Positions 9,815-32,000 of a stretch of 32,000 nucleotides of DNA are shown here, in pieces. Position 1 is the first letter of the stretch; each line of letters opens with the position of its first letter. A program made the translations under genes and the position numbers. The DNA is from Sinorhizobium meliloti (GTDB lineage Bacteria > Pseudomonadota > Alphaproteobacteria > Rhizobiales > Rhizobiaceae). The notes under the pieces are model-generated. The model did not search any database. It was given only the letters and a program-made list of their open reading frames with translations, and was not told the DNA's origin. The DNA is taken from assembly GCF_017876815.1 (NCBI RefSeq), contig NZ_JAGIOS010000004.1, positions 150,001-182,000 of the forward strand, in the 5' to 3' direction.

Positions 9815-9837
9815 AACCCTGAAAAACAGGCGTTGGC

Positions 9838-9870: not shown

Positions 9871-9873
9871 TCA

Positions 9874-9907: not shown

Positions 9908-9910
9908 CCA

Positions 9911-11170: not shown

Positions 11171-11766
11171 CCTGTTTCCAGTTGTTTCGAAAATACGACC
11201 ACCTGACCCGACCCCTTCGCTCCAGCCCCATTACAGGGCCTTCAACGCTAATACGGGTCGATCCGTCCCAGCTTCCTGCATCGGTACTCTCGCCTCGCGG
11301 TGATGTGCCGCTTGTGCTTCTCCCTTGGCATCAGAAAGCTGGTTCCTGCAGTTCCACGCAAAAGCCTGCATCCGTCTCATGCCCCCTATACGCCGTCCAC
11401 TGTCCGCCCAGTCATCAGGCTCCCGACGGACTTGTCCCGAGAGATCCATACACCCTCGGTTTTAGTGGTGGTAAAGAGTTCTAACGACGCGTCATCGAAG
11501 GGTTTGCTTGCGCTCATCTTCCGGATGCCTACCTGCCCCGGATCATGTCCGCGGCTTTTGACCCAACGCTCACCACCATGGCTCTTCTACCACAGCAGCT
11601 TGGGCTGGTTTGAGACCCGCTCCTGAAAGCCGATCCCGAGGGGCCTACCCTCATCTTTCACGCAGCTTCTCAGCATGTTGTCAGTTCGCCATCGAACCTC
11701 CTTCTGCTTGCTGCAGCACACTATGGACGGGCACTAGTCTAGAGCGGATCGCCGCCGAGCCGCCTG

Positions 11767-11994
11767 ATGGCCACCCATCACCCATATTTTCACCATCAAT
11801 CATGTCGCCGAAATGCTCGGCGAAGACCGAGAACTCCTCGAGGCGATCGACAGCAACTCTGACAGTTTGACCTATGGAAGTATGGAAGTATCTTCAGCGT
11901 CGTACATGGTGACGATGAGACAATCACCGCACTGACCGACGATGGCATCGATGAGCTGAGGCAAATGCTTGCCGATGCGCGCCGTTCACCTTAA
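11767..11994 (+). pseudogene. Small conserved-looking ORF (~70 aa) broken by frameshifts
   Basis: Removing one copy of the 8-bp duplication gives ...PITHIFTINHVAEMLGEDRELLEAIDSNSDSLTYGSIFSVVHGDDETITALTDDGIDELRQMLADARRSP-stop. The only ATG (11767) is one base out of frame. No family name was recognised. Confidence 0.4.
11873..11888 (+). repeat. Perfect 8-bp tandem duplication (tatggaag x2)
   Basis: tatggaag at 11873-11880 is repeated at 11881-11888. The duplication shifts the frame of the small ORF above. Confidence 0.95.
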
Positions 11995-12132
11995 GCTTGG
12001 AACGACTTCCTCGACTACGAAGAAGTCATCGCTTGCGTCAAGGCGAAATCTCCGCGGTAACAATCGGCCGGTTACCATATTAGCGGCTTGCCAAGAGTTC
12101 ACGCCGACTAGTTACTTCGAGGCCTTGGCTCT

Positions 12133-12330
12133 ATGTTTCAGTGTCATGGCGCTCCGATGGCCTTTTCCGACAAGCATTCGGTCTTTCGCGTGGCGAAGAA
12201 GGACGCCACGCGCCGCCAGGGCATGACCCCAGTACAACCGTGCGCTTTTGGAGCGAAACATCGAGATCACATGCGATCTCAGCGTTCGTACGACGGAGGC
12301 ACCCCATCGCGTGGTCATTTGTAGCTCTCG
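12133..12330 (+). pseudogene. Heavily decayed remnant of an rve (integrase-core) type transposase
   Basis: Across three frames it reads AFSDKHSVFRVAKKDA...GMT / LERNIEITC. This resembles the remembered YSDKHS.FRV...G.TQFGRAL.ELNIE..CA.SPQAKGRVER block. Several frameshifts are present. Confidence 0.3.
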
Positions 12331-12449
12331 CAAATTGCCAGAGTACGATCTCAGAAGTGTCCGCTTCGTAGCCCCGCGTCCGCCATGGCGTTGGGCTCCT
12401 TCAAGAGCTCAGCCGTTCGTACACATCGAGCGCAGCGCTGTGGGTCGGC

Positions 12450-13727: not shown

Positions 13728-14359
13728 AACGGGTCCCGCGAAGGCTATTCTCCAGCATGTAGGTTTATTGCCACGGCCCTTCTTGCACGTCTGAAAACGC
13801 CGCGCAAGTCGCAACCGGATAGATTGTGGCGGGTCCACCGCACAATCTAGTCCGATCAGCGCGCGCTCGATCTTCCCTAGGGTTGATTTGCGCATGTACG
13901 AAGCCAGTTTCCCGCTGCGCCCCGTGGAACATTTCTGCCGGTATGAGTGAGTGTGTCACAGCCCGAGCGTTGACATCTATTGGGGCCCGACCCGCAGCTT
14001 GTTATGCGGCGAGTAGATAAGAGTTCCTTTTTCGCGCGCTACTCACACCATTGCAGCATCCCGCGGACGAAAGCAGAAGCTCGGCGCGACATCCCGCATG
14101 GGCGAATGAACCTTGAGCCGACTGGTGATCCTCGGTCCGAACGCGGCCGGTGCGCTGGGCAAAGCGTAAAAGCTCGACCGTGGACCATGGCTTGCGCGAA
14201 TGCTGAACCGCAAACAACCCAGATTGGCGGCCCGGCCAACAAAGATGGGTTGCATCGTCCGGCGGAACGCATTGCAAGTCAGCAAGAGCGCCGGCCGCAA
14301 CAGCGGCAAATGTGAGCCAGAGCCTCATATCGGTGGAAACCGCCGGGTCAGCTCTCAGC

Positions 14360-15049
14360 CTAAAGCTTCGACAATGTCTCCAACCAACTCTCTTTCGTAT
14401 TCCCGGCACGACGATTGCCTTCCAGCACAAGCTTGGGAACAGTGCTAATCATTGCACTGAATTGCCGATCAACATTTGCGATCGCCGCATCGTTGTCTCG
14501 CTTATCAAGAAGCTCCAGAAGCTCGCTCATGTCATCTCTGATACATGAGAGACGCTCCGGCTGGTGCAAGTCCAACCAACGAATGTATCTCGTCCGAACG
14601 TTGTACTCATGCACGAGGTCCCGCATTATTCTGTTGTTCGAAGCCTTCGCGATACGTTCGTAAAAAGACTGTTGGAACTCCCTGATCAAGTCGTAGTCGG
14701 TCCAGCTGGGAAGAACTACAAACGTAGAGTGCTCATACAGGTTTTCTCTGAACACATGCTTGAGCACCATCATAATAAAATCAAGTTGATCCGACAGTTT
14801 CTGTGGATCAAGCTTCTTGGTGTAGTAGCCATTGTTGAATGAGCTCATGATGTATTCTTCTATTTCGAGCTGAATTAGTACCTCGCGCACAGGTACAACG
14901 CTAGTATTCATGACGTTGCTGATTGCAACAGCATCGAGTCGCGTACCGGGTGGAACCTCACAATTGACGATAAGCTTCTTGAGTGCTTTATATACTTTGC
15001 CGACCTTGGACTCGTCCCATCCTAGTTTATGTTCGTGGCGACTATACAT
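14360..15049 (-). CDS. GntR-family transcriptional regulator (FadR/FCD-like C-terminal domain)
   Basis: An N-terminal winged HTH (KVYKALKKLIVNCEVPPGTRLDAVAISNVMNTSVVPVREVLIQLEIEEYI) is followed by a ~150-aa helical domain. GGAGGAG lies 5 nt upstream of ATG 15049; the ORF is open to 15067. The gene is visibly AT-richer than its flanks. Confidence 0.85.
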   Translation of the reverse strand: MYSRHEHKLGWDESKVGKVYKALKKLIVNCEVPPGTRLDAVAISNVMNTSVVPVREVLIQLEIEEYIMSSFNNGYYTKKLDPQKLSDQLDFIMMVLKHVFRENLYEHSTFVVLPSWTDYDLIREFQQSFYERIAKASNNRIMRDLVHEYNVRTRYIRWLDLHQPERLSCIRDDMSELLELLDKRDNDAAIANVDRQFSAMISTVPKLVLEGNRRAGNTKESWLETLSKL

Positions 15050-16287
15050 GCCTTCTCCTCCGCGCATAGTTTCTGTTGTTCAAAGAAGTCTGGGGCTGCA
15101 GCCCGCTTCTGGCGCTGGCGTGTAATTTCTCCTCTGTCGCGTACCGCGGAATACTCGAGAAGTAACCGAACATGTCCGACAATTAGCCGTACGGATCGAG
15201 ATCTCCGGCGGTGACGCGTAATTTTTTGCAGTGCGAAGGCTCTGAGAACGATGTGGTGGTGCGGAGCCGGAGGCTACGAGATGATCTGTGATTTCTTGGC
15301 CTCGCGCCGCCACGGGCAAAACTGCAAAGCCTTCTTCGCACGGGCCGAAGCGGAATAACGTTCGTTTGTGTCGCAAGACGCATCCTGACGGTGTTTGAGC
15401 TGCATGTTGATAAACATCCGTCACGATGTAGACTCGCTTCTCCGTGCCAGTCAACCGAAACTTACGGCTTTATCGGAGCGCCTTTCGTCAGCCTCATTGA
15501 ACTCTTGTGTTTATTTCCCTCACAGTCAGCTGCGGAGTTGTCGCTTGGCACTTATATGTGAGAATGCGGCTGTTTCAGCCGAATGTGGCATTAAAGATGA
15601 GAATCCAACGGGTGGGATGCGCAAAATAACTGCACTGGGAAGACGCCACCGAACGGCATGTATGGGGCATGATCTCCTCAATAGCGCTGCTGAATCGCAC
15701 TTGATTCTGACCCATCATTTTCGCACGCCTCATCATGAGCATCACTGGTCCAGCCCGCTCGAGATGGATACTCCGGCTAGCCGAGCTGATCGCAGATGCA
15801 GCGCCAGCATGGGATTTGCTGCAGTAGGTAGGCTCCTTAGTTCCGTGGCGACGGCGAGCGATTTCGGTCGGCGAAGTCCAGGTTCGGACGCCGCGCTCGG
15901 CCTCATCGTCGAGGAGCCGTTCTCCTATGAGCGCAGTCCCATGATAGCGGCCGAACAGGAGACGGGCGGTCATGCCTGCCTGGGTGCCGGAGCAGGCCAC
16001 CACACAGCGGGCAGGTGATGCGCCAGCCGAGAAGCTGGCTGCGAAGGCCGGGTCCCGGTTCATGGTCACTCGGATGGCAGGCTGAGCGGGACTCTAGCGG
16101 TCTGGCTGCAATCAGGCGTCGCGATGCTCGCGCCACATTCGAAGAGGTCATGCGGCGCAGGGCGGCCGGTTCGGTCGAGAAGATGCCGGCCAGGCGCGTA
16201 ACCTGAGCAGCGGTTAGGCTGCGATCGCCCGCGCGCAAAGACAACACCTGGGAAGACAATGCCGCAGCATACTAGAGCAGATCCTGT

Positions 16288-17234
16288 TCAATCCGGGTCA
16301 TACCCGGCAGCCCTGAAGTAGTTGGCACACTCGTCAGGAGTGAAGCGGGGTATCAAGGCGCCGACTGCGTCCCACAGGGCATCGATCTTTCGCTCCGCGC
16401 GGCCTCGCAGCATGGCTTTCAGTTTCGAGAATGCATTCTCGATGGGATTGAAGTCTGGGCTATAGGGCGGGAGGAACATAAGCTTGGCCCCGGCGCGCTC
16501 GATGGCATCCCGCACACCGGATGTCTTGTGTGCTGGCAAGTTGTCCATGACTACGACGTCCCCGGCCTGAAGGGTCGGCAGAAGTACCTGTTCGACATAG
16601 GCCAGGAAGACGTTGCCGTTCATCGCGCCGTCGTAGACAAACGGTGCGGTCATTCCGGTTAGGCGCAAGGCGCCGGTGAAGGTCGTTGTCTTCCAGTGCC
16701 CGTGCGGTACGCCGGCCCGGCAACGTTCGCCTCGCAGTGCACGCCCGCGCAGACGTGCCATCTTCGTGGAAAGGCCGGTTTCATCGATGTAGATCAGCTT
16801 CTCCGGATCGAGATCGAGCTGACCATCAAACCAGACGCGCCGGCGCTTCAGGACATCCGGCCGGTCTTGCTCCAGTGCGTGTGCGGTCTTTTTTTAAAGG
16901 TCCATCCTCGGCCTCGAAGCCAGGCGCCAAGTGCGCTACGGCTGATCTTCACCTGCCGTTCGACGGACAAGCGCTGGACCATTTCATCGAGCGTCACGTC
17001 CTTCCGCTCTTCGATCAGGGCGACAACAAATTCCTCGTGTGCGTCTACCGCCGATGGCCGCCTCCAGCCCTGCGGCCGAGGGGTCAGCTCGCCCTCTTTC
17101 GCTCTCGCGATCCAGCGGATCGCTGTCGAGATCCCAACTCCGAACCGGGCTGCAGCCTGTCGAGCTGACATGCCCGCTGCAGACGCTTTCAAAACCCGTA
17201 TTCGAAGATCGTCGCTCAGTGCCTGGCCCATCAT
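16288..17234 (-). CDS. IS630-family transposase made from two frames (orfA 17234-16848, orfB to 16288), probably by -1 frameshifting
   Basis: orfA reads [40 protein letters not shown]...WTFKK. The -1 frame continues [49 protein letters not shown]...[10 protein letters not shown]...[19 protein letters not shown] (DDE blocks). Confidence 0.8.
16888..16895 (-). promoter_or_regulatory. Candidate programmed -1 ribosomal frameshift heptamer A AAA AAG
   Basis: The minus strand reads ACC UUU AAA AAA AGA (a run of 7 A then G) exactly where orfA homology ends and the -1 frame picks up transposase homology. Confidence 0.6.
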
Positions 17235-17748
17235 CCACCTCTTCGCTGTGGATGTTGAATCAGCTTCGGCCTGCGTCGTCACTTCACAATCGATTCATCG
17301 ATCGCAGCACGTGCTCTAAGTGGCGGGATCGCATCGAAGGAAGCATGCCGGCTGATCCAAGACGACAAGGAGCTCGTCGGCGTTCGGGCGCCAAGATTAC
17401 CGGCAATTGCCGCGAGGATATACCCGCGTCATGCGAAGACTGCCTCGGCATCAAACTCCGGCTCCCACTTCTCGATCGGTTCGCTCGTAATCTGCTCGCG
17501 TCCAAGGGACATACCGAAAATACAGTAGCGAATTATAAAATTCTCAACAGAGGTGGCCCTTGTTAAGGAAATAATACAATATCCCAATATATATACTTGC
17601 GTCGGCTCATTTGTTTGCTCAAAACCATCCCGGCCAAATCAACCGTTTTGACGCGATTCTAGCCAAACCAATGAGGCACCAGGCGGGACTGCGGCAGGCG
17701 ATGCCCTCCCTTCAATCCGAGTGTCTCGTCCTAGTAGGAGATCAAGCT

Positions 17749-18867
17749 ATGTCACGCAAAGCACCTTTCACGAGCGATCCGATCTTGCAAATGAACTCGC
17801 TGGCGCCTGCGCTCGAAGTGCGGGACTGGGTACGTGGTGAGCCCCTTGCGAGCTTCCAGCCCGGCAGAGTGTACATCCTTGAAATTTTGTGCAACCTGGT
17901 GTGGATCTTGTGTGGGGGCGATGCTCACCCTGATAGAGCTGCAGGAGACTTACAAGGACAGTGGAGTTGAGGTCGTTGCAGTCGCGGCACACGAAAGCGC
18001 TGCATCCGCCGAAGAGGCCCGCAGCAAGCTTGACGCGTGGTTAAATGAGAGTTTCCCGAAGTTGAACTTTCTGGTCGCGTTCGACGACACAGGCGCAATG
18101 AACACTCTTTGGATGCAGCCGAGTTTTTCTGTCGGGATTCCGAAGGTGTTCGTGATCGGCCGAGACGCCACATCGCCTTTGTCGGTCGACCGGACAAATT
18201 GCACGACGTTCTGCCGCAAATTCTTGACGGCACCTGGCGCACCAGCGCTCAAGCGAAAGCCGCCGAAAGGGAGCGGATCGCCGAAGATGAGCCAAAAGCG
18301 CGCAAACAAGCGTTGAAGGAGCAGATCAGGGGCAAATTCAGGGAAGCGGAGGAGCTAGAGGATTGGAAAACGGCGCTTGCGACGATTAAAAAGGGCGTTG
18401 CCCTTTATCCGAATAACCTTTCTTTCCGCCAGGCGCATGTCATGCTGCATGCGGCGTTTTTCGAACTTTTCGACCCGGCGTATGACCACTCGAAATTTCC
18501 ATCTGTCGAGCGCTTCGCCATGGGCAAGGAGCTCTCCGAACACATTCTGGCACTGTCTCGGCTGAAAGATGACTACAGCAAGGCGTGGTTTTATCGTATG
18601 GTCGCTGCGTACTATCATGCGAGTGGCAACAAAGACCGCGCAGTCGAGTTGCTCGAGCTGGCAGTGAAGTCGCTGGACGGGCCAAAGCCTATTTCCGAAG
18701 TTCTGAAAGACGGCTTTCTAGCCGATTTGCTGCAGACCCTAGCCAACTACAAGGGCGAGAAGGTTTGTTACGGCAATGTTTGTGTGGCTCCGGAGGAGAT
18801 AGCTCCGGACGGTGTCACGCCGAAGGCGGGGAAGAAGAACCCGGCTGACAGAGGAGCTCTTGAATGA
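17749..18867 (+). pseudogene. Thioredoxin-fold (TlpA/redoxin-like, CxxC) protein with helical C-terminal domain; two 1-nt frameshifts
   Basis: AGGAG lies 8 nt before ATG 17749. MSRKAPFTS...GRVYILE shifts (extra base in gaaattttgt, ~17881-17888) to FCATWCGSCVGAMLTLIELQETYKDSGVEVVAV...GIPKVFVIGRD, then shifts again (missing base ~18165) to HIAFVGRPDKLHDVLPQILDGTW...helical repeats...YKGEKVCYGNVC. Confidence 0.7.
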
Positions 18868-18889
18868 CCTCTATTCCATTTGCATCAAG

Positions 18890-19156
18890 GTCGGCGTTGT
18901 TGTCGGCAAGATCCTCGAGAAGAACACCGACGACTTCGGCTACAACGCTCAGACCGGCGAATATGGCGACATGATCGCCATGGGCATCATCGACCCGGTC
19001 AAGGTCGTTCGCACCGCGCTCCAGGACGCAGCCTCGGTTGCTTCGCTGCTCATCACCACCGAAGCCATGATCGCCGAACTGCCGAAGAAGGACGCTCCGG
19101 CAATGCCTGGCGGCATGGGCGGAATGGGTGGAATGGGTGGAATGGACATGATGTGA
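18890..19156 (+). pseudogene. groEL: 3'-terminal fragment of a groEL (Cpn60) gene, ~88 codons
   Basis: [86 protein letters not shown]-stop is the unmistakable GroEL C-terminus with its GGM tail. Nothing upstream resembles GroEL. Confidence 0.9.
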
Positions 19157-19192
19157 TAAGGCGACAGCCTTAGCACGATCCATCCGGATCTG

Positions 19193-19219
19193 AAGGGCGG
19201 CTCTCGAGCCGCCCTTTTT
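19193..19219 (+). terminator. Rho-independent terminator (native groEL terminator)
   Basis: aagggcggc tctcga gccgccctt followed by tttg, starting 37 nt after the groEL stop. Confidence 0.75.
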
Positions 19220-19220
19220 G

Positions 19221-19540
19221 TTACCCACAGAAGAAGCGACCGATCTCGTCGAGTCAGGACGATCCAACGTTGATCACCCGGTCTGCTGGCCACCTCGGAC
19301 CGGGCCGATTGCTACCGCTGGAGACGCCTTGATGGGAGCGGTGAGTTCATAACGGAAGGCGTTAGCCAGATCGCCCTTGCCCGGAATACGGGACAGTTGC
19401 GCTTCAGCCCAGACGCGGAATGCTTCGACCATTGCTTTGCTGTGCTTCTGACGAGCAGCAAGGCGGATATCGCCAGGTTGGCCTGCAATGTCGCGCTCGA
19501 TGTCGTAAAGCGCACCGATACGGTCGAGAGCCTCTCGCGC
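19221..19540 (-). pseudogene. Remnant of an IS66-family transposase (TnpC) C-terminal region
   Basis: AREALDRIGALYDIERDIAGQPGDIRLAARQKHSKAMVEAFRVWAEAQLSRIPGKGDLANAFRYEL matches the remembered IS66 block (EAL.RI..LY.IE...R...RQ..S.P......W......LS.KS.LA.AIRY.L). An internal deletion follows, then a decayed tail (..LDEIGRFFCG-stop). Confidence 0.65.
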
Positions 19541-20305
19541 GAAGGAACATTGCGATCACAGCAATCATCTCGCTAAGCTCAGGTCGCTATCGGGAGGAAA
19601 TCTCGTCGACGAGTTCGAAACGACGGTTTTTGACAAGGCTCGAACACTCTGAGGACTGTCGTCCTGAGCAAAGGCCGTTCACGAGCTCTGCCATGAGGTC
19701 GAGGATGTCCCGCGCCAGCATGGTCTTCCGCCGTTCGTGTGGCAATCCCTTTCTTGTTAATCAACCGCCGCGATTCCCGGCATGTATCACGTCAAATCCA
19801 TCAGTCGGGAAAATAGATCAGAATATAGGTTCATATATAGTGAGATGTGCGGGGTATCGATGAAGTAGAGCGGTTGTATAACACTATATGGCAGAATATA
19901 TTTCGAAATATCTAGAGTTACGCTTGTCTCAAGCATGCACTTCTATTAGAGCTCGTCTTACGTCATTCGCCGCCCACAGCGGGTGCCGGTCTTCCGCCCT
20001 TGCATCGCTTAGAGAGTGAAGTGCCACCATGTCCGAACGACCCTTACCGCGCCAACTGTCCGATCCACTGCGTGCGCTTCCCGTCCGGGGGAGAAGGCTG
20101 GTGGGTGACAGGCTAGGACGACGCCAAGGCGATACTGTCCGACGCGGCGTTCCGGCCCTCGGGAATGCCGCCAGCGGAAAGGGTTCTCACCGGGGACTGG
20201 AATTAAGGAACATTGCCCCTACCAGTCTCCAAACAGGTCTTCCGGCCACGGACAGCGTGTCCACCAAATCGTCTCGCTCCGCTTCCAACTGCGCCAAGAG
20301 GATAC

Positions 20306-22812: not shown

Positions 22813-23459
22813 ATGAATGCCTTCAGAACCGCTCTCGCAGTCTTGCTTTCAACCGTTGTCGTTAGCCACGTCGACGCGGCTGATCGCAAGACTATCAAAA
22901 TCGCTACCGAAGGGGCCTTTCCTCCTTGGAACGCGGTCGACGCCGATGGCAAAGCGATCGGCTTTGACATCGATGTGGGGCGGGAACTTTGCCGCATGCA
23001 AAACTGACTTGCGAGTTTGTCACCCAGGATTGGGACGGTATCATCCCTGCTCTCAACGTTGGGAAATATCATGCCATCATGGCTGGAATGTCGATCACCG
23101 AAAAGCTCAAACAGGTGATTGCATTTTCCCGACCTTACGCGCTGACCTCCAACTACTTCGTGATCAGAAAGGAGCTCGATGTACCGGTGATGGATGCAGA
23201 CTCCAAGATCGATCTCTCCCGCAATGATGACGAAACCAAACAGATCCTGGCCTCATTGATTTCCAATTTGAAAGGGCATTCTATCGGCGTGCAGCGATCG
23301 ACCAACGCTGAGGCCTTCATCCGCGAGTACTTCGGTGACTCCGTCGAAATTCGTAGTTACGACAACCAGGGTAACCTTAACTTGGACTTGGCATCAGGCC
23401 GGATCGACGGCGGGCTGGCTGATTACTCGGTTTGGAAAACATTCTTGGCGTCCGGTAAA
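22813..23459 (+). pseudogene. Periplasmic polar amino-acid/opine-binding protein (HisJ/OccT/NocT-like), frameshifted and 3'-truncated
   Basis: A signal peptide MNAFRTALAVLLSTVVVSHVDAA is followed by IKIATEGAFPPWNAVDADGKAIGFDIDVGRELCR. A frameshift at ~22985-22995 leads to KLTCEFVTQDWDGIIPALNVGKYHAIMAGMSIT...GRIDGGLADYSVWKTFLASGK. Homology ends at about 23455. Confidence 0.8.
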
Positions 23460-24510
23460 CCGGCCCTTCGCCCCCTTGTGGCGGCACCCAGTTGATGTTC
23501 TGGTTCGGGTCCTTGATGTCGCAGGTCTTGCAGTGGACGCAGTTCTGGGCGTTGATGACGAAGGTCGGCTGGCCGTCCTTTTCCACCCATTCGTAAACGC
23601 CGGCCGGACAGTGGCCGGCATAGACCTCGTATTCAGAGCGCTTCTGCAGGTCCCAGTCCTTCACCTGAAGATGCACCGGCTGGTCCTCCTCGTGATTGGT
23701 GTTCGACAGGAACACCGAGGAGAGCCGGTCGAAGGTCAGCACCCCGTCCGGCTTCGGGTAATCGATCTTCTGGTGCTTCGAGGCCGGCTCCAGCGATTGG
23801 GCGTCGGTCTTGCCGTGCTTCAGCGTCCCGAAAAAGGAAAAGCCGAAGAGCTGGTTCGTCCACATGTCGGGACCGCCCAGGGCCACGCCGACGGCGGTGC
23901 CGAAGCGCGACCACAGCGGCCCTCACCCTTTTCAGGTCCTGGCCGATTGCACTCTCGCGCCAGCCGCGCTCAATCTCGATCGGTTCGTCATTGGCGCGGC
24001 CGCTGGCGATCGCCTCCGCCAGTTCTCCGCGGCGAGGATGCCGGACAGTACCGCATTGTGGCTGCCCTTGATGCGCGGCACGTTACGAAGCCGGCCGAGC
24101 AGCCGATCAGCGCCCCGCCGGGGAAGGACAGCTTCGGCACCGACTGGTAGCCGCCCTCGGTGATGCCGCGGGCGCCGTAGCAGAGCCTTTTTCCACCCTC
24201 GAAAGTGCCGCGGATCGCCGGATGCGTCTTAAAGCGCTGGAATTCCTCGAACGGATAGAGATACGGGTTCTTGTAGTTGAGGTGGACGACGAAACCGACG
24301 GCAACCAGATTGTCCTCCAGGTGATAGAGGAAGGAGCCGCCACCGGTCTTCATTCCGAGCGGCCAGCCGAAGGAATGCTGCACGAGGCCGGCTTATGATT
24401 TCCGGTTTCACCTCCCGGAGCTCCTTCAGGCCGATGCCGAATTTCGGCACGCCGCGGCTCGCGTCGAGCTTGTATCTGGCGATCAGCTGCTTGGCGAGCG
24501 AGCCACGCAC
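23455..24510 (-). pseudogene. Electron-transfer-flavoprotein:ubiquinone oxidoreductase (ETF-QO), 5'-truncated with several frameshifts
   Basis: Spread over at least four frames: RGSLAKQLIARYKLDASRGVPKFGIGLKEL.EVKPE / [53 protein letters not shown]...[11 protein letters not shown] / [15 protein letters not shown] / ...CPAGVYEWVEKDG..FVINAQNCVHCKTCDIKDPNQNINWVPPQGGEGPVY. Confidence 0.85.
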
Positions 24511-25194: not shown

Positions 25195-25602
25195 TCACGT
25201 CGCAGCAAGGATCATCCCCTTCCAGAAAGACGGGGATGCACTCGATGGATCGGGATGGCCGCGGTGGCGGTCTCTTTCGGTGAGGATCTCATGTAAGGAT
25301 TCCTTTGCTCGTTTGTGAATTGTCCGCCATCGCATCCGTTTCGCGATCGTCAAGTCGAACCGAACTTGTATAGCGGCCAGAACTGACAATACCGACACGC
25401 CTGATGCCCTCCATTCCTTCAACGCTTCACCCATACCGGGAACGTCGGAGGAGACGCCAAGCAGCGCGCCCTTGTATCGCCCTGCCGCGATCTCGTAAAT
25501 CTTCGTCTTTGCGCCGATCGGATGCCTCCCGCTCCCGCCGCAAGTGGCGCGGCTGTCAGCGACCATAAGCCCCGTCTTGCGCTCGTAGGGGATGCAAGTC
25601 AT
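25195..25602 (-). pseudogene. Proteasome-beta/HslV-like Ntn-hydrolase gene, probably decayed after ~65 codons
   Basis: GGGAGGG lies 8 nt upstream of ATG 25602. MTCIPYERKTGLMVADSRATCGGSGRHPIGAKTKIYEI places Thr at mature position 1, Asp at 15 and Lys at 33. The remaining 135-aa ORF looks non-protein-like, while protein-like pieces appear in other frames down to about 24985. Confidence 0.4.
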
Positions 25603-25660: not shown

Positions 25661-27121
25661 TCAATCCTCGCTTTGAGCCGGCACCAGGTCCTGAGCTTGC
25701 GGCAGGTCCTCTGTAAGGTCGGTGTCTTCAGCGTCCAGTGTGGGGATGAGAGCCAAAAAATCGCGGACCATGAAGTTCGGGTCGGACAGCGAATGGCTCG
25801 CCTGGATTAGCCTGTCAATCTGGCTCCCCTCGATATCGGGGAAGGCGTAGGCAAGGCAGCGGCTGAACTTGTCTTCGAGTTCTTCTTGCGAAAGAGGATT
25901 TTGTGGATTGCCTTTGGGCTTGGAAACTTCCCCGATCGTGCGCGTGCCGTCGGCCCACGTGATGTTGACGATGATAAGGCCATGCGCGCCGAGTTCAGCG
26001 ATCTCACAGGCAGGATCAACACGCGGATGAACCTTTTCACTCAGCTGCAATATTTCGGGCTGGGAAAGTGCATCCTCATCATAATCCTGGATGAAGACGA
26101 TGCCATTTTGCAGTCCGACCGCTACGGTATATGCCATGCCGAAACGGGCTTCGACCGGTGTCCGAGGCCTCCATTTCTGATCTGCGGGGGCGCATACAAG
26201 ATCGAAAATCTGCTGGTTCATTGCTATGTCGATACGCTCGACATCATCGGCGGAGATCGGGCGACCATCAGCAAGTTCGATAGCCAAAGCGGTGGCGGAG
26301 ATGTTGGGGCGGCAGGTCGGATAGGGCTTGTAGGCAATGTCATCATCACCTGCGAAATGCTCGCCGAGCCGATCCAACAGCGTCTCGGGTCGGGAACCGG
26401 GCTCGAAGGCGGAGAAAAGTCCGTATCGACCCGTCAAAAACTGACGCGCGCCTGTAAATCCTTGTTCGGCCAGGAGCACGGCGCGGACGGCATTGGATGC
26501 AACCAGACCTTGCTGGTAGGAAACAGTGGGGGCGCCTTCCACCATGCACTGCGCCTCTCCAAGCGCGGACGTGTAGGCGATACCCATGGCGGCGTGGAGC
26601 TGCTCTTGCGAAAGTCCGCGCAATCGTGCTGCGGCGGCCGCTGCGGCAATAACCTTGCTGAGGTCATATCGGCCACTTTCGAGAAGCGTTTCCTTTCTTG
26701 ATCGAGCCAATCGCGTTTGAAGATCTTGACCAATGGCCATAGCTGCCAGGAAATCACGGCCGAAGACCTTATCCGGGGACAAGGCAGCGATCGCGCAGAT
26801 GACGGGAAAGATAGCGACGCTGGGATGTATGCCCAACGGGTCGACGACATCATCGAAATCCAGAACGCGCGCAGCCGCGCCATTGAGCAGAGCCGCATCT
26901 GCCGGCGGCAGCTGGATAGCGGTGCCAAGTACCGGGCACTCAGGCGGCCCCCAGGTCTTCATCGCCTTTTGCAGTAACCGAACTTCGGGGCGCGTTTGTC
27001 CCGCCAGCGTCACGCCAAGTATGTCGAGCACCGATTGGCGTGCGGTTCGCATCGCCTGATCCGAGATCGAAGCGGTGGGAAAACTATGCGCATATTGGGC
27101 AAGAGCTTCTTCTACAGACAT
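25661..27121 (-). CDS. MmgE/PrpD-family protein (2-methylcitrate dehydratase / cis-aconitate decarboxylase family), 486 aa
   Basis: Full-length family-like sequence: ...ARQSVLDILGVTLAG..., LNGAAARVLDFDDV...HPSVAIFPVICAIA, AAAAAARLRGLSQEQLHAAMGIAYTSALG, KPYPTCR. The ATG is 8 nt after the BCCP stop. Confidence 0.88.
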   Translation of the reverse strand: MSVEEALAQYAHSFPTASISDQAMRTARQSVLDILGVTLAGQTRPEVRLLQKAMKTWGPPECPVLGTAIQLPPADAALLNGAAARVLDFDDVVDPLGIHPSVAIFPVICAIAALSPDKVFGRDFLAAMAIGQDLQTRLARSRKETLLESGRYDLSKVIAAAAAAARLRGLSQEQLHAAMGIAYTSALGEAQCMVEGAPTVSYQQGLVASNAVRAVLLAEQGFTGARQFLTGRYGLFSAFEPGSRPETLLDRLGEHFAGDDDIAYKPYPTCRPNISATALAIELADGRPISADDVERIDIAMNQQIFDLVCAPADQKWRPRTPVEARFGMAYTVAVGLQNGIVFIQDYDEDALSQPEILQLSEKVHPRVDPACEIAELGAHGLIIVNITWADGTRTIGEVSKPKGNPQNPLSQEELEDKFSRCLAYAFPDIEGSQIDRLIQASHSLSDPNFMVRDFLALIPTLDAEDTDLTEDLPQAQDLVPAQSED

Positions 27122-27129
27122 GATAAATC

Positions 27130-27687
27130 CTACTCTTCGTCGTGGGGGAGCAGTTCAAAGCGGGCAAGGATCTGTCCTGTCTCGACCGTTTGGCCGGGAT
27201 TGACGCACAGTTCGACAACCCGGCATGCCGCGCTTGCGGAAAGCGTCGAGATCACCTTCATCGCTTCAAGCTGAAGGACGGGCTGAAAGGGTGCGAGATG
27301 ATCGCCCGGTTTGACCAGGAGATCGTTCACAGCGCCGTGAAATGGTGCCCAAAGGCCGGTAGGGTCGGTATGCGCGAGTGCTGAGTGGCGCGTACGCGAC
27401 TTAGCGCCGATCGCATATTCCAGATAGTAGGCGTCCATTGAGATTGGGACGCTGCCGTTTGGCTGCCGCACATTTCCGATGGTGACAGTCCGAGGCAGGC
27501 CATCGATAACGAGGTGGAAGTGGTCCGCCACGGCATCTTTGCTTACCCCCAATAGCTCAACGCCGATCACGCCTTCAGCGACATGGGCTTCAAACTGGGT
27601 CGCGCTCGTGGATGTGAGAATTAAATCCCACTCCGAAACGATATCCGCTGGTCCGAAGGTGATGCCCTCAATTCGCCTGCCAACCAT
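27130..27687 (-). CDS. Biotin carboxyl carrier protein with ~110-aa N-terminal extension
   Basis: The C-terminal biotinyl domain is VKPGDHLAPFQPVLQLEAMKVISTLSASAACRVVELCVNPGQTVETGQILARFE. The start is taken at ATG 27687; the ORF is open to 27702. It overlaps the BC gene end by 20 nt. Confidence 0.8.
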   Translation of the reverse strand: MVGRRIEGITFGPADIVSEWDLILTSTSATQFEAHVAEGVIGVELLGVSKDAVADHFHLVIDGLPRTVTIGNVRQPNGSVPISMDAYYLEYAIGAKSRTRHSALAHTDPTGLWAPFHGAVNDLLVKPGDHLAPFQPVLQLEAMKVISTLSASAACRVVELCVNPGQTVETGQILARFELLPHDEE

Positions 27688-29155
27688 TAGGCACCCCCCC
27701 ATTGTTGACCCGTTGCCACTTAGACGCAGGGTTTGCCTGAACAGGGGACGAGGCGGTGGATGCAGCGAGATGTTTTTGCAGTGCCGCTGCTATTGCCACA
27801 TCGCGTAGCAGCGTAGTGGGCGCAGCATTGGGGACAAACGTCGAGGCGATGGAGAGGTCGTAGGTGCCAGCGACGAAATCTGGCTGATCGAGAAGCCAGC
27901 GATGAAAAATCAAGTTGGTGGGAAAGCCGGCAATTCGTGTTTCGCTCAGGGCCTGACGCGCGCGTCCGATCGCCTCCGTGCGGTCGCGTCCCCATATGAT
28001 AAGCTTGGCGCACAGACTATCGTAGCGGGATGGCTGTAGCGCGCCAGTCTTGATTCCAGCGTCAACCCGGACGCCGGGACCGGCGGGGAATTCGCAGGCC
28101 GAGACGGTGCCGCCACCCGGACGGAAGTCACGATGGGGATCTTCTGCACAGATGCGAAGCTCAATGGCGTGTCCGCGATGCGTCTCTTCGCCGACAACTT
28201 CCAGAGAATCGCCATTGGCGATCCGGAACATCTGCTCAACAATATCTACGCCTGTGATAGCTTCGGTCACGGGATGCTCGACCTGAATGCGGCCGTTCAT
28301 CTCGATGAAGTAAAAACGTGCCTCAGTATCGAGCAAAAATTCCACCGTGCCCGCACTTGTATAGGAAGCGGCTTTCGCAAAGGCGGTTGCTGCGGCGGAT
28401 ATCTCGTGCCGCAAGGCCGGAGGGATGCTGGGCGCCGGCGCTTCTTCAACGAGCTTTTGCCGCCGTCTCTGAACGCTGCAACCGCGATCACCAAGCGAGA
28501 AGACATTGCCCGATTGATCGGCCACTATCTGGATTTCGACGTGCCGGATATCGTCGCCCAGATAACGCTCGATATAGATTCCGGAACGGCCGAAAGCGAT
28601 GCGGCTCTCGAGATCGACTTCTTTCCAGGCGGTCTCAAGATTCTGCAGAGTGGTGGCAAGACGGATACCCCGCCCCCCACCTCCAGCGACGGCCTTGAGG
28701 AGAACGGGAAATCCGATCTCCTCAGCAAGGACGATGGCAGCTTCAAGCGTTGCGACCGCTCCACCAGGAATGACAGGGAGACCGGCGTCGCGGGCAAGAT
28801 CTCTGGCACGCACCTTATCGCCCGCCAATAGCAGTGCATCGGGATGGGGCCCGATGAATATCAGCCCTGCGCTCCCACATGCAGCTGCAAAATCAGCATT
28901 TTCCGCGAGCGGACCATAGCCCGGTGCAATGGCGTCCGCTTTCCAATTTTTTGCGATGGCAAGGAGTGCTTCGGGCGAGGCATAAGGGTTGGCCGCGTCG
29001 CTGCGGACCCTGTGATCTGCGGCAAGCACGAATGAAGCCTGTCTCTCTTCGTCAGTGTAGACCGATATGGTCTCGATGTTGAGCCTCTTGGCCGTGCGGA
29101 TAAACCGCAATGCAATTTCTCCCCGACAAGCCAGGAGGACGCGCTTGATCGTCAT
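27668..29155 (-). CDS. Biotin carboxylase (ATP-grasp) subunit of an acyl-CoA carboxylase, 495 aa
   Basis: MTIKRVLLACRGEIALRFIRTAKRL, GYGPLAENADFA, VLLKAVAGGGGRGIRL, RHVEIQIVAD, CSVQRRRQKLVEEAP and YFIEMNGRIQVEHPVTE are all present. There is no BCCP domain at the C-terminus. Confidence 0.95.
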   Translation of the reverse strand: MTIKRVLLACRGEIALRFIRTAKRLNIETISVYTDEERQASFVLAADHRVRSDAANPYASPEALLAIAKNWKADAIAPGYGPLAENADFAAACGSAGLIFIGPHPDALLLAGDKVRARDLARDAGLPVIPGGAVATLEAAIVLAEEIGFPVLLKAVAGGGGRGIRLATTLQNLETAWKEVDLESRIAFGRSGIYIERYLGDDIRHVEIQIVADQSGNVFSLGDRGCSVQRRRQKLVEEAPAPSIPPALRHEISAAATAFAKAASYTSAGTVEFLLDTEARFYFIEMNGRIQVEHPVTEAITGVDIVEQMFRIANGDSLEVVGEETHRGHAIELRICAEDPHRDFRPGGGTVSACEFPAGPGVRVDAGIKTGALQPSRYDSLCAKLIIWGRDRTEAIGRARQALSETRIAGFPTNLIFHRWLLDQPDFVAGTYDLSIASTFVPNAAPTTLLRDVAIAAALQKHLAASTASSPVQANPASKWQRVNNGGVPNGWQAN

Positions 29156-30402
29156 GAAGTCACCTCCACGGAAGGGACAACATCGCTGTGCCGCACATGC
29201 TGTCGCCCACGGCCAAGTTCGGTGTGGGCGCGCGTGAACTCTCCGGCACTAACGGCGCCGGCGACAGAAACCTCTCCCGCCAGTGCCACGGCGGCGGCGA
29301 TCTCGGCGAGTTTTCGCGCGTCATCCAGGCAATCAAGCATGGCAAGGCATTCGCGCTGTGCGGGAAGTTTCGTTCCTCCACCGACCGTGCCGACAAGGAC
29401 GTTGGGCAACGTGACACTGGCGACAAGATCACCGGCACCGTTGACCTCGAAGCAGGTACTGGCATTGCGGAAAGCAACGGTGGTGAACGCCGGATCCTGG
29501 CCGCAGGCGATAAAGAGCGCAGCGAGTGCATTGGCTATATGAATATTGGGGGCGGTCGCCCCTCGTTGGGACAGGACCAGGTTGCAGGCCAGCAAGAAGC
29601 GCCGCATCTTGTCTGGCGTGGACCTCACGCGGCGCTCGATAAGCGCGGCCGATATCGTGGCGCTTGCAGTGACGTAGCGTCCCTTCGCCTCATCGGGGAC
29701 AAAACGCTTGTCGCCACCTAGCGTGTTGAAATAGCCGGTGACCAGATCCCCGGCATGTTCCATGATATAGTGGCAGGCTGCCTCGTTGCCCTTGGTGGCC
29801 ATATTGAGGCCCATGGCGTTGTCAGTCTCGTAGCGGAAGGCGAGACCCACTATATCGCCCTGAAAGATCGGCGTTACCTCCTTGAGCCGGGCAAAACGGC
29901 TGGTCGCATTTGCTGTCTCCGAAAGACGAACGGCATGAGCGCGCAACCAGCTATCGAAGGAAGCAGCGTCGGCCGGAGATCGCAGGCAGATCGCGCTGAT
30001 CTTGGTGAGCGCATCTCCGCGAAACCGGTATGGGCTATCTGCTTCGTCGGGCGACCACTGATTGTCTGGCAGGAATGTCGTGACGCCTCCAGCCTCGGTG
30101 AGAAGCTGCATGCCTCGTGAAAAGGAGGCAACCAAGGCCCCCTCGGTCGTAGCGAGCGGGACGAAATAGTCTCCTTTAGCGTACTTTCCATGCACCAGCA
30201 GCGGCCCGGCAATTCCGACAGGGACGCCGACAAGGCCGAGATAGTTTTCGATCGTGCCCAGCAGTTGGTCCGGCTCTGTCGGAACGCTACCGAACAGATA
30301 TGGGTAGTCGCGCCCATGCATTTTCGAGAGCCAATCCTGGCGATAAGCCACTTGCTGCGGCGAGAAATCATTCTGGGGGTCGCGCGGGATCTTCACGATC
30401 AC
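29152..30402 (-). CDS. HMG-CoA reductase-family protein (class I-like catalytic domain), atypical
   Basis: IENYLGLVGVPVGIAGPL, VPLATTEGALVAS, DNAMGLNMATKG, GGDKR, FIACGQD, VGTVGGGT and LAGEVS are present. Start is GTG 30402, or more likely GTG 30396 (GGGAGG plus a 5-nt spacer). The stop overlaps the BC start (ATGA). Confidence 0.85.
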   Translation of the reverse strand: MIVKIPRDPQNDFSPQQVAYRQDWLSKMHGRDYPYLFGSVPTEPDQLLGTIENYLGLVGVPVGIAGPLLVHGKYAKGDYFVPLATTEGALVASFSRGMQLLTEAGGVTTFLPDNQWSPDEADSPYRFRGDALTKISAICLRSPADAASFDSWLRAHAVRLSETANATSRFARLKEVTPIFQGDIVGLAFRYETDNAMGLNMATKGNEAACHYIMEHAGDLVTGYFNTLGGDKRFVPDEAKGRYVTASATISAALIERRVRSTPDKMRRFLLACNLVLSQRGATAPNIHIANALAALFIACGQDPAFTTVAFRNASTCFEVNGAGDLVASVTLPNVLVGTVGGGTKLPAQRECLAMLDCLDDARKLAEIAAAVALAGEVSVAGAVSAGEFTRAHTELGRGRQHVRHSDVVPSVEVTS

Positions 30403-30408
30403 CTCCCG

Positions 30409-31869
30409 TCAGAGCTGGATGTTGGAATGTTTACGGCGCGGCGTACCGTCGATCTTGCTGGCAAGAAGGCAGAAGCTGGCTGCCAGAGTCGGTCGGATAG
30501 TGTCGGGGGGAAGCAGGGCCTCGACATAACCACGCCGGGCGGAATAGGCAGCGCTTGCATGAGCGTCGCGATATTCCGCTGCTAGCCTGGCCTTGTGCGC
30601 AATGGGATCCTCCGCCTCCGCGATCTGCCTGCGGAAGATGACGGCAACGGCGGCCTCGGGACCCATCACGGCGATTTCGGCATCGGGAAGAGCATAGGTG
30701 AGGTCAGTCGCCCAGCGATTGGCAAGCGTAGGATGGGCGCCTCCATATGCCTTGCGCAGGACCAGGGCGATCTTCGGGACGGTAGCCTCGCAGTAGGCGT
30801 GGAGCAGCTTTGCTCCCGCTCCAATAATCCCCCCCGCCTCCTGTTTGAGGCCAGGCAGGTAACCGGGAACGTCAAGAAGCGTGAGAATTGGAATGGAGAA
30901 GGCATCGCAGAAGCGTATGAACCGAGCAGCCTTCTCGGACGAGGCCACGTCAAGGCAGCCGGCAAGTACCTTGGGCTGATTTGCCACAATGCCGATAGTA
31001 AGCCCTCCCAGTCGGGCGAAACCGGTCAAGACATTGGGAGCAAACAGGCGATGCACTTCCAGGAAGTGTCGGTCATCGACGATTTCTCCGATGACGTCGA
31101 GGACATCGTACGGCTGCGTGGCAACTTGCGGAATGAGCTTTGCAATAGCGGAGGAACCGGAAACATCCGCTGGCTGTGAAGACGACTGTGAAACGCAGTT
31201 ATTCGCCGGAAGGAAACTCAAAAGCTCGCGGGCGATCTCAAGGGCATCGTCAACTGAATCTGCCAGGAAATGGGCGAGCCCCGTCGTGACTGCGTGAAGG
31301 ATGGGGCCGCCTATCTCTTCCTTGCTGACGATTTCCCCGGTCGCCTGCTTAATGACGGTTGGTCCTGTGAGAAACATGGTGGACTTGTCGCGTACCATGA
31401 TGATGAAGTCGGTGAGAGCCGGAGCGTAAGCGGCACCTCCGGCGCAATCGCCGAGCAGAATGGAAATCTGGGGAATGACGCCGGATGCCCGAACAGTTTT
31501 ATAGAAGACCTCTCCGAACTGGACGCCGGCATCGACGCCTTCGTGGATGCGAATACCCGAAGAGTCATTCAGGCCGAGGACAGGCATGCCGGCCTTGAGG
31601 GCCAGATCGAGTATCTTCGTTATTTTGAGTGCGTGCATCCGGCTGGAGCTTCCTCCCAGAAACGCAGCGTCATGGGCATAGATGCCGACTGGGCGGCCGT
31701 CGATCCGGGCATGGCCGACAACAAGTCCGTCACCCGAAACCCGGCGGCGGTCGGCGCCGAAATGAATGCAATCATGTTCGACCAGCGCGTCAATCTCGGC
31801 AAAGCTGCCGGGGTCAACAAGTTGATAGATGCGTTGCATTGAATTCGAGATGGGTGAGGCATCCGTCAT
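30409..31869 (-). CDS. Acyl-CoA carboxylase carboxyltransferase (beta) subunit, PccB/MccB-like, 486 aa
   Basis: LVDPGSFAEIDALV, GRPVGIYAHDAAFLGGSSSRMHALKITKILDLALKAGMPVLGLNDSSGIRIHEGV, VIPQISILLGDCAGGAAYAPALTDFIIMV and MFLTGPTVIK are present, with a second crotonase-fold half (GIVANQP...AEKAARFIRFCDAFSIPILTLLDVPGYLPG). Confidence 0.92.
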   Translation of the reverse strand: MTDASPISNSMQRIYQLVDPGSFAEIDALVEHDCIHFGADRRRVSGDGLVVGHARIDGRPVGIYAHDAAFLGGSSSRMHALKITKILDLALKAGMPVLGLNDSSGIRIHEGVDAGVQFGEVFYKTVRASGVIPQISILLGDCAGGAAYAPALTDFIIMVRDKSTMFLTGPTVIKQATGEIVSKEEIGGPILHAVTTGLAHFLADSVDDALEIARELLSFLPANNCVSQSSSQPADVSGSSAIAKLIPQVATQPYDVLDVIGEIVDDRHFLEVHRLFAPNVLTGFARLGGLTIGIVANQPKVLAGCLDVASSEKAARFIRFCDAFSIPILTLLDVPGYLPGLKQEAGGIIGAGAKLLHAYCEATVPKIALVLRKAYGGAHPTLANRWATDLTYALPDAEIAVMGPEAAVAVIFRRQIAEAEDPIAHKARLAAEYRDAHASAAYSARRGYVEALLPPDTIRPTLAASFCLLASKIDGTPRRKHSNIQL

Positions 31870-32000
31870 GGTCGTTGTCCAATCAGCTTTTTCTCTTTTT
31901 CGGGGGCATCACGTCCCCGACTGAATTCCGGCCTGGTGTCCGGGACTTCGTTTCTGAGGCTCGACTCGATTTGCTGAAGCAATTCGCGTCTCCGGGTCGA
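31866..32000 (-). CDS. 3' end (44 codons) of an unidentified upstream gene of the same operon
   Basis: The frame is open from the window edge: ...STRRRELLQQIESSLRNEVPDTRPEFSRGRDAPEKEKKLIGQRP-stop. Its TGA overlaps the CT start (ATGA at 31866-31869). It is too short to assign a family. Confidence 0.5.
   Translation of the reverse strand, partial: STRRRELLQQIESSLRNEVPDTRPEFSRGRDAPEKEKKLIGQRP

Follow-up and report, generated by a model that had tools for sequence, protein, structure and literature searches.

Biotin-dependent acyl-CoA carboxylases such as propionyl-CoA carboxylase (PCC), 3-methylcrotonyl-CoA carboxylase (MCC) and geranyl-CoA carboxylase (GCC) are catabolic enzymes. Among the homologues of class I 3-hydroxy-3-methylglutaryl-CoA (HMG-CoA) reductase (HMGR), the FcrA protein described in 2025 is changed at Ser684, at the lysine that binds the HMG carboxylate and at Leu862, and it reduces other (fatty) acyl-CoAs to the alcohol rather than HMG-CoA; many bacterial proteins called class I HMGR are said to be of this kind (PMC11948995). 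Members of the carboxylase and HMGR families are encoded side by side, together with a protein of the MmgE/PrpD family, in a stretch of 32,000 nt from Sinorhizobium meliloti (contig NZ_JAGIOS010000004.1, positions 150,001 to 182,000; the whole stretch is referred to here as the window). The genes encode, in order of transcription, the end of a fused indolepyruvate:ferredoxin oxidoreductase (IOR) family protein, a carboxyltransferase (CT), an HMGR-like reductase, a biotin carboxylase (BC), a biotin carboxyl carrier protein (BCCP) and a PrpD-like enzyme. We propose, tentatively and at a likelihood somewhat short of even, that this block is the core of a conserved, mobile pathway, which would lead from an arylpyruvate by way of arylacetyl-CoA, arylmalonyl-CoA and a 2-aryl-3-hydroxypropionate to a 2-arylacrylate.

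The six genes of the window are co-directional and lie head to tail, as is evident from the listing of open reading frames (ORFs) and from direct reading of the five junctions. An earlier, sequence-only reading of the window had described them as coupled minus-strand ORFs, and every overlap and spacer that it gave was found again on re-reading. The partial IOR ORF and the CT gene overlap in an ATGA (31866-31869), as do the stop codon of the HMGR-like gene and the start of the BC gene (29152-29155). A GGGAGG sequence follows the CT stop (30409-30411) and precedes the HMGR-like start, the BC and BCCP genes share 20 nt, and the spacer between the BCCP and PrpD-like genes is 8 nt long. None of the six ORFs is interrupted in the window or in plasmid pMl1 of Sinorhizobium meliloti ml56 (CP140923.1), to which the region is 100% identical, and the region is also 99.5% identical to seven S. 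medicae plasmids, from isolates obtained from Medicago lupulina. The family assignments of the sequence-only reading were borne out by full-length Pfam matches, far above threshold, which are not a chance pattern, and the protein that it gave as 416 aa long (414 aa from the annotated start) does belong to the HMGR family. None of the five complete proteins reaches an NCBIfam equivalog cut-off, and by these profiles they are family members without an assigned function.

Genome neighbourhoods were inspected for HMGR homologues beside a carboxylase, as the sequence-only reading had recommended, and the same five-gene order recurs across genera. Wherever a contig covers all five genes, they stand without exception in the order CT, HMGR-like, BC, BCCP, PrpD-like; in two contigs that are cut at one end (L025 and L029), it agrees as far as it is readable. 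The hosts are Xenorhabdus, Photorhabdus, Burkholderia (including B. oklahomensis, B. mayonis and B. savannae, relatives within the B. pseudomallei group), Paraburkholderia, Pseudomonas, Chromobacterium violaceum (Chromobacteriaceae), metagenomes and the Sinorhizobium plasmids; the module spans at least six proteobacterial genera, the metagenomes and one contig labelled Amycolatopsis. Of the 13 loci in which genes were called, 10 show the 4-nt overlap between the HMGR-like stop and the BC start. The HMGR-like proteins make up a tight clade and so do the PrpD-like ones, with the same taxa represented in both: identity is 56-71% inside the HMGR-like clade and then falls abruptly to about 40%, and 49-69% inside the PrpD-like clade with a sharp drop to 35%. 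The ortholog on L029 shows 83-94% amino-acid identity to the window and an identical junction geometry. Comparison of the two gives dN/dS values of 0.07-0.28 for all five genes (dS 0.31-0.56), which supports purifying selection on the module as a whole. Its conservation is wide but patchy, and it appears to be horizontally mobile. The sequence-only reading had held that the acc, pcc, mcc/liu and atu carboxylase loci have no HMGR homologue between the CT and BC genes and no PrpD-family gene at the end. No description of this gene combination or operon was found in a full-text literature search, whose coverage leaves out many papers in subscription journals; the combination and its coupled order appear to be undescribed.

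The HMGR-like protein matches the Pfam HMG-CoA_red profile (PF00368, 3.4e-80) from position 2 to position 368 of 368. It scores 241.3 bits against the class I equivalog TIGR00533, which has a cut-off of 441.8, and only 52 bits against the class II model TIGR00532. Its residues were compared across 32 clade members, with human and archaeal class I HMGR as references and in human numbering. The window protein resembles class I HMGR (human 1dq8 and M. thermolithotrophicus 6hr7, 34-38% identity) in its fold family, in the nucleotide motif GTVGGGT and in the catalytic residues Glu559, Lys691, Asp767 and His866, which are invariant in all 32 members; Asn755, His752, Ser565 and Arg568 are kept by the clade as well. 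Unlike class I HMGR, it has a shortened cis-loop (by 2-4 residues, depending on the alignment) from which Ser684 has been lost (32/32), alanine at Lys735 (29/32), phenylalanine at Leu862 (32/32), lysine at Arg590, arginine at Lys692 and an insertion of 17 residues. Because the catalytic residues are retained and those of the HMG pocket are not, the protein is very probably an HMGR-family acyl-CoA reductase that acts on a substrate other than HMG-CoA.

The lysine printed as 'Lys795' in the account of FcrA is Lys735. The window protein and FcrA are then alike in the retained catalytic residues and in changes at Ser684, Lys735 and Leu862; the window protein has the small residue at Lys735 and the bulky residue at Leu862 that distinguish FcrA (alanine and phenylalanine, respectively), and a four-electron reduction of a non-HMG acyl-CoA would be a trait common to the two, by prediction on the side of the window protein. 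However, Ser684 is deleted in all 32 clade members and not replaced by glutamate, the window protein is without a Lad or acyl carrier protein (ACP; lipid-carrier) domain, and no WS/DGAT wax-ester synthase gene was seen in any neighbourhood. Its partners, a carboxylase and a PrpD-like enzyme, point to a short, carboxylated substrate rather than to the fatty acyl chains of C14 and above that FcrA uses. Judged from its residues and partners, the window reductase is not a typical FcrA either, and in a rough neighbour-joining tree, built without a verified FcrA sequence, its clade stands apart from both HMGR and the FcrA-like set. The nearest relatives outside the clade, at about 40% identity, are from Bacteroidetes, and 80 of these 82 proteins have glutamate at the position of Ser684. 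As a separate observation, the 82 proteins, annotated as class I HMG-CoA reductases (P0035-P0120), carry glutamate or aspartate at this position (with one gap), a small residue or methionine at Lys735, and phenylalanine or tryptophan at Leu862. This is the residue pattern of FcrA, and their annotation as HMGR is therefore probably wrong.

The carboxylase appears to be of the alpha-carboxylating (PCC/ACC) type, where ACC is acetyl-CoA carboxylase. CT matches Carboxyl_trans at 3e-149. BC contains Biotin_carb_N, CPSase_L_D2 and Biotin_carb_C (1e-32 to 1e-64) and scores 484-496 bits against the NCBIfam accC-type models, under their equivalog cut-offs. BCCP has a Biotin_lipoyl domain at residues 125-181 (3.7e-12), with the biotinylation motif EAMKV, behind an N-terminal extension of about 105 aa. 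The oxyanion-hole glycines of CT (AGGA and GGA motifs) are kept. Among solved relatives, CT scores best with 1vrg (510 bits) and with S. coelicolor PccB (486 bits), and scores against the PCC beta subunits and the 12S transcarboxylase range from 510 to 450 bits, compared with 219 bits for MCC beta and 200 bits for GCC beta; CT is closest to neither MccB nor GCC beta, the subunits of the gamma-carboxylating (3-methylcrotonyl-/geranyl-CoA) type. By these scores, CT would be expected to carboxylate the alpha-carbon of a saturated acyl-CoA.

A comparison with PCC and similar acyl-CoA carboxylases (S. coelicolor PccB, T. maritima 1vrg) shows the same full-length CT domain with its oxyanion glycines, the same three BC domains and the same (A/V)MK motif in BCCP. 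The differences are that the alpha subunit is split into BC and an N-terminally extended BCCP, that the reductase gene is placed between CT and BC, and that the acyl pocket is changed. The PccB specificity residue Asp422, which is aspartate in propionyl-CoA enzymes and isoleucine in acetyl-CoA enzymes, is proline in each of the 17 clade members. Three other pocket motifs have changed throughout these 17, including GPCAGGA, which has become GDCxGGA; DSGGARIQEG reads xSSG(I/L)RIHEG. Against the mmdA subfamily model, CT scores 570 bits, with a cut-off of 998.8. Sequence comparison thus describes CT as PccB/12S-like with an altered acyl pocket, and the proline at Asp422, together with the changed motifs, suggests that the substrate is neither propionyl- nor acetyl-CoA.

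These results bear on both of the models that had been put forward in the sequence-only reading. In the first, an MCC-like carboxylase would convert methylcrotonyl-CoA to 3-methylglutaconyl-CoA, from which HMG-CoA and then mevalonate or a mevalonate-type product would be formed by a true HMG-CoA reductase. The full-length HMG-CoA_red match and the four catalytic residues agree with such a route, but CT is PccB-like and not MccB-like, and the model is therefore not supported. The score against TIGR00533 is also about half of its cut-off, the changes at Ser684, Lys735 and Leu862 remove HMG-pocket residues, an enoyl-CoA hydratase is not among the products of the five invariant genes, the annotated neighbourhoods examined contain neither an HMG-CoA synthase nor a mevalonate kinase family member, and no HMG-CoA lyase was seen in any neighbourhood examined. 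We regard this route as extremely improbable. Of the second model, in which (methyl)malonyl-CoA is reduced to a 3-hydroxy acid, the chemical logic stands, but the acyl group is probably wrong. Such small aliphatic substrates would pass through the same chemistry, from acetyl- or propionyl-CoA through (methyl)malonyl-CoA and 3-hydroxypropionate or 3-hydroxyisobutyrate to acrylate or methacrylate or, in a variant, from succinyl-CoA through 2-hydroxymethylsuccinate to itaconate. That the closest solved relatives of CT are PCC beta subunits and the 12S transcarboxylase speaks for them, whereas the proline at Asp422 and the pocket motifs altered in every clade member do not, and overall we consider small aliphatic substrates rather unlikely.

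The PrpD-like protein bears on the same question. It contains MmgE_PrpD_N (1e-51) and MmgE_PrpD_C (4e-31), and falls far below the PrpD equivalog models (60.6 bits against a cut-off of 458 for TIGR02330, and 66.4 against 575 for NF006943). Its nearest solved relatives are B. subtilis IRG1, human cis-aconitate decarboxylase (CAD) and iminodisuccinate (IDS) epimerase, at about 105-120 bits, compared with 35-50 bits for true PrpD. With IRG1/CAD, IDS epimerase and PrpD it shares both Pfam domains and the motifs DFDD, HPS (CAD His103) and FK (CAD Lys272). Unlike CAD, it has a 5-aa insertion before the ARF motif, and two positions are replaced in 17 of 17 clade members: at His159, GWH/RFH has become GRYD, with tyrosine, and at Lys207, TKPLH has become TV(S/F)YQ, with valine. 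The full CAD active site (His103, His159, Lys207 and Lys272, whose roles we take to be those assigned in CAD structures) is thus not present, as two of its four residues are replaced. By these features, the protein belongs to the IRG1/CAD and IDS-epimerase branch with a changed active site. The two replacements may amount to the loss of carboxylate-binding groups, and the substrate may accordingly be less carboxylated and more hydrophobic. The loss of these cationic residues is a second argument against small aliphatic substrates, although the characterised and structurally solved enzymes of the PrpD/IRG1 family are known to use small polycarboxylates, and IRG1 makes itaconate.

The acyl-CoA on which the carboxylase acts would be supplied by the product of the gene at the edge of the window. 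The complete gene was read from CP140923.1 (locus L001, 26206-29697) and encodes a 1163-aa fused IOR-family protein, which scores 1471 bits against NF009588 (cut-off 952), contains POR and DUF6537 domains, and carries a CPGCPH cysteine motif and a GDG...N thiamine pyrophosphate (TPP) motif. By score and by its TPP and cysteine motifs, it falls within the fused IOR subfamily (NF009588/NF009589). It resembles the archaeal two-subunit IOR in its alpha- and beta-like regions, TPP motif and Fe-S cysteine motifs, and the reaction type common to both would be the conversion of an arylpyruvate and CoA to arylacetyl-CoA and CO2. It differs from the archaeal enzyme in being a single fused polypeptide with a C-terminal DUF6537 domain, in occurring in aerobic bacteria, and in scoring only 95-116 bits against the IOR_alpha equivalog (cut-off 651). 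The sequence-only reading had called for a look beyond position 32000 for the start and promoter of the operon; the IOR gene was found there, but no promoter could be assigned. A search of L001 for RpoN (-24/-12) promoters gave 27 matches with 23 expected, none of them 5' of the operon on the right strand, and a scan for sigma-70 promoters and terminators 3' of the PrpD-like gene found nothing.

A fused IOR adjoins the module in 13 of 17 non-redundant loci. In the contig labelled Amycolatopsis sp. NPDC059090 (L028), its place is taken by the E1alpha, E1beta and E2 components of a 2-oxoacid dehydrogenase complex, whose genes come after the five-gene module (L028 11622-14817). This exchange is the strongest indication that the module draws its acyl-CoA from a 2-oxo acid by oxidative decarboxylation, and it supports the role of acyl-CoA supplier that the fused IOR would have in the other loci. 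The same contig has a divergent gene of the benzoate-CoA-ligase family (3197-4714) and an EamA transporter gene ahead of the module; it is flanked by group II intron reverse transcriptase (RT) genes, and its Amycolatopsis label may deserve checking. In C. violaceum, CV_0303, a 'probable indolepyruvate ferredoxin oxidoreductase', is listed in two proteomic tables, being abundant in the secretome and reduced about 20-fold when cells are exposed to lead (PMC13324451, PMC13545060). The identity of CV_0303 with the IOR of the cluster could not be established.

Outside Sinorhizobium, the neighbours of the module suggest which 2-oxo acid this might be. An aromatic-ring hydroxylase of about 555 aa (FAD_binding_3) flanks the IOR gene in 12 of the 13 IOR loci, with a gene for a DUF2783 protein of 66-92 aa between the two where genes were called; in the metagenomic contig L026, the hydroxylase ORF is 626 aa long and no separate small gene is called. 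The same two-protein architecture is seen in MhaA (566 aa) and MhaB (60 aa), which form a two-component 3-hydroxyphenylacetate 6-hydroxylase (PMC3053370), the likeness being one of architecture. The module is often accompanied by genes for an EthD-like protein, an MFS transporter and a MarR regulator. Spare shikimate genes stand beside the cluster in three independent lineages: a class II 3-deoxy-D-arabino-heptulosonate 7-phosphate (DAHP) synthase in Burkholderia mayonis (L004), chorismate mutase and prephenate dehydrogenase in three Pseudomonas (L007, L011 and L012), and 5-enolpyruvylshikimate 3-phosphate (EPSP) synthase and chorismate synthase in L026. The MhaAB-like hydroxylase and the shikimate genes together point to a substrate derived from an arylpyruvate. 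Small aliphatic substrates are at odds with the usual acyl-CoA supplier, an enzyme of the IOR family that occurs together with an aromatic-ring hydroxylase and with shikimate paralogs; they would be easier to reconcile with Paraburkholderia and some Photorhabdus, in which the module stands without IOR or aromatic neighbours. Five-gene versions without accessory genes occur in these two genera. In the Paraburkholderia loci without IOR (L022/L023, 14821-15262), a gene for a MaoC-type hydratase of 144-146 aa lies directly 3' of the PrpD-like gene, which fits an unsaturated product.

It is also possible that the module is catabolic, and that an aromatic or other 2-oxo acid, or an arylacetate, is degraded by way of its acyl-CoA and carboxylation, in the manner of the catabolic PCC, MCC and GCC. 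The HMGR-like enzyme might then run in the oxidative direction, from alcohol or aldehyde and CoA to acyl-CoA, as in degradative class II HMGR, but the protein is a member of class I, the NADPH-type family, and its score against the class II model is the low one given above. Some of the surroundings agree with degradation: PaaX- and PaaY-like genes follow the cluster in Xenorhabdus, genes for a thiolase, an enoyl-CoA hydratase, a MaoC protein and a CoA-transferase lie a few kb upstream in Paraburkholderia piptadeniae, and MhaAB-type hydroxylases serve hydroxyphenylacetate catabolism (PMC3053370). The shikimate paralogs in three lineages, the MarR and MFS genes and the patchy spread among producers of secondary metabolites are, by contrast, typical of biosynthesis. 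A catabolic role seems improbable on balance, though far from negligible.

In the pathway that we favour, the fused IOR would first decarboxylate a 2-oxo acid oxidatively to an acyl-CoA; the enzyme family is evident, and an arylpyruvate would be the substrate. BC, BCCP and the PccB-like CT, a carboxylase whose type is likewise clear, would then carboxylate the alpha-carbon of this acyl-CoA to give a 2-substituted malonyl-CoA. The HMGR-like enzyme is predicted to reduce the malonyl-type thioester with two NAD(P)H to a 2-substituted 3-hydroxypropionate, which would be of the tropate type if the substituent is aryl. In the last and least certain step, the PrpD-like enzyme may remove water, isomerise or decarboxylate, yielding a 2-substituted acrylate or a related product. 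Hydroxylation and export of the product would follow in other genera, where the MhaAB-like hydroxylase, EthD-like, MFS and MarR genes complete the cluster. Reduction of the carboxylase product, a thioester, by the HMGR homologue, as the sequence-only reading had suggested, is still the most economical reading of the invariant gene order and of the recurrent 4-nt overlap, and the two enzymes may physically associate. The closest parallel in logic is the 3-hydroxypropionate bicycle, in which ATP-dependent carboxylation by ACC is likewise followed by a four-electron thioester reduction, by malonyl-CoA reductase, to a 3-hydroxy acid. However, that malonyl-CoA reductase is of the short-chain dehydrogenase/reductase (SDR) and aldehyde-dehydrogenase type and not of the HMGR family, the genes of the bicycle do not form a single coupled operon with a PrpD-like gene, and the substrate of the window enzymes is probably substituted.

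Several points weigh against the proposed pathway. Substrates and products, including the specificity of the fused IOR, are predictions for the six proteins and for their clade homologues alike, and the aromatic neighbours are absent from the Sinorhizobium copy, from Photorhabdus asymbiotica and P. australis, and from Paraburkholderia. Acyl-CoA carboxylases other than ACC are mostly catabolic, so a degradative role is possible. The characterised and structurally solved members of the PrpD family act on di- or tricarboxylates, and none is known to act on a monocarboxylic aryl acid. The reductase might act on the uncarboxylated acyl-CoA instead. Finally, the CT gene is possibly frameshifted in some S. 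medicae copies.

The Sinorhizobium copy is a six-gene core, a truncated, horizontally acquired piece of the larger cluster that lies among insertion sequences (IS) on accessory plasmids. No FAD monooxygenase, DUF2783, EthD-like, MFS or MarR gene was found in the window and 20-kb flanks of two Sinorhizobium plasmids. The S. meliloti and S. medicae copies (about 6.3 kb, at the identity given above) differ at 32 positions: one is a deletion and the other 31 are substitutions (17 synonymous, 13 non-synonymous and one in a spacer). The deletion, of 1 nt in a run of seven C (window about 30829-30835), splits the CT gene of S. medicae ml4 (locus L008), and the annotation of several other S. medicae and S. 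meliloti plasmid records suggests a split CT gene that may share the defect. It could be a real frameshift and a sign of decay, or an error of long-read sequencing in a homopolymer. The view that the block is free of frameshifts and kept by selection accordingly holds for the intact ORFs of the window and for the dN/dS values, but not for CT as it reads in the record of S. medicae ml4.

It has to be asked whether the Sinorhizobium block has lost its function and is carried along as a passenger on an IS-rich plasmid, as part of a foreign cluster that no longer makes its product, with or without decay. The accessory genes missing within 20 kb, the truncated cytochrome P450 gene and IS elements upstream, the transposases and group II intron that fill the window, the CT deletion in at least one S. 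medicae plasmid, and the 13 non-synonymous against 17 synonymous changes would all fit a passenger. Yet neither the window nor CP140923.1 shows a broken ORF among the six, the L029 ortholog preserves the same junctions at low dN/dS, five-gene versions without accessory genes persist in Photorhabdus and Paraburkholderia, and the single indel in the C7 run may be a sequencing error. A non-functional block therefore seems quite unlikely. The positions of the genes and of the other features in the window are collected in Table 1.

Table 1. Genes of the coupled block and other features of the window
Feature	Position	Strand	Remarks
PrpD-like gene	25661-27121	minus	MmgE/PrpD family, Pfam MmgE_PrpD_N and MmgE_PrpD_C
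BCCP gene	27130-27687	minus	annotated start; alternative ATG at 27702
BC gene	27668-29155	minus	ATP-grasp biotin carboxylase subunit
HMGR-like gene	29152-30396	minus	GTG start as in GenBank record CP140923.1; 414 aa
HMGR-like gene, alternative start	GTG at 30402	minus	product of 416 aa
Shine-Dalgarno sequence GGGAGG	30402-30407	minus	5 nt upstream of the annotated HMGR-like GTG (30396)
CT gene	30409-31869	minus	carboxyltransferase (beta) subunit of a biotin-dependent acyl-CoA carboxylase
Partial ORF at window edge	31866-32000	minus	last 44 codons of the fused IOR-family gene
ABC-ATPase/transposase chimeric ORF	18-839		
Mutator-family transposase	1426-2628		
DDE transposases	6427-7515, 8297-9658		
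Group II intron RT/maturase	9911-11170		
ParA-like protein with MerR helix-turn-helix (HTH)	12450-13895		
GntR regulator	14360-15067		

Outside the block the window is a mosaic, riddled with IS elements over positions 1-20000, in which transposases and a group II intron are mixed with split genes. One of the latter, at 23377-24383 on the minus strand, resembles an electron transfer flavoprotein (ETF)-ubiquinone oxidoreductase gene and is divided into two ORFs, and its counterpart region in S. medicae ml4 holds one gene of 1518 nt, annotated as a '4Fe-4S dicluster domain-containing protein' (L008 12711-14228). Two further ORFs were considered as members of the module and rejected. The first, on the minus strand of L001 (29745-30506), encodes the N-terminal 170 or so residues of a P450, lies 48 nt upstream of the IOR gene and is followed by IS fragments. 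Its best NCBIfam match is to pentalenolactone synthase (1e-28), the truncation is common to S. meliloti and S. medicae, and the gene was not found beside the module in other genera. The second is a 135-aa ORF (25195-25602, minus strand), 58 nt 3' of the PrpD-like stop and with a Shine-Dalgarno-like GGGAGGG upstream, which has no Pfam or NCBIfam match and is found in the Sinorhizobium plasmids only. Beyond an IS66 element 5' of the operon, L001 contains a non-ribosomal peptide synthetase (NRPS) cluster (35577-46340) with two adenylation-domain genes, a phosphopantetheinyl transferase (PPTase) and a SagB-family dehydrogenase; no link between this cluster and the operon was established.

For the biology of rhizobia the significance is smaller, since what Sinorhizobium carries on its accessory plasmids is a horizontally acquired and truncated version. 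Each of the enzymes comes from a well-known family, and what appears to be new is their combination and the invariant, coupled order of their genes. It is possible, although we consider it doubtful as yet, that the module provides a new route from 2-oxo acids to alpha-methylene or alpha-hydroxymethyl acids (of the tropate/atropate type or itaconate-like), with a probably electrophilic product, a third functional type of class I HMGR homologue after HMGR and FcrA, and a new PrpD/IRG1 reaction. If so, a new specificity class of HMGR homologues would be concealed under the mistaken annotation 'hydroxymethylglutaryl-CoA reductase' in proteobacteria without mevalonate genes nearby, and a new acyl-CoA carboxylase specificity and a new reaction of the PrpD/IRG1 family would be added. 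The product, if this doubtful route holds, would be a small molecule common to C. violaceum, Burkholderia, Photorhabdus, Xenorhabdus, Pseudomonas and the rhizobial plasmids, and the module would point to a new metabolite of tractable bacteria, among them C. violaceum ATCC 12472, Burkholderia and Photorhabdus.

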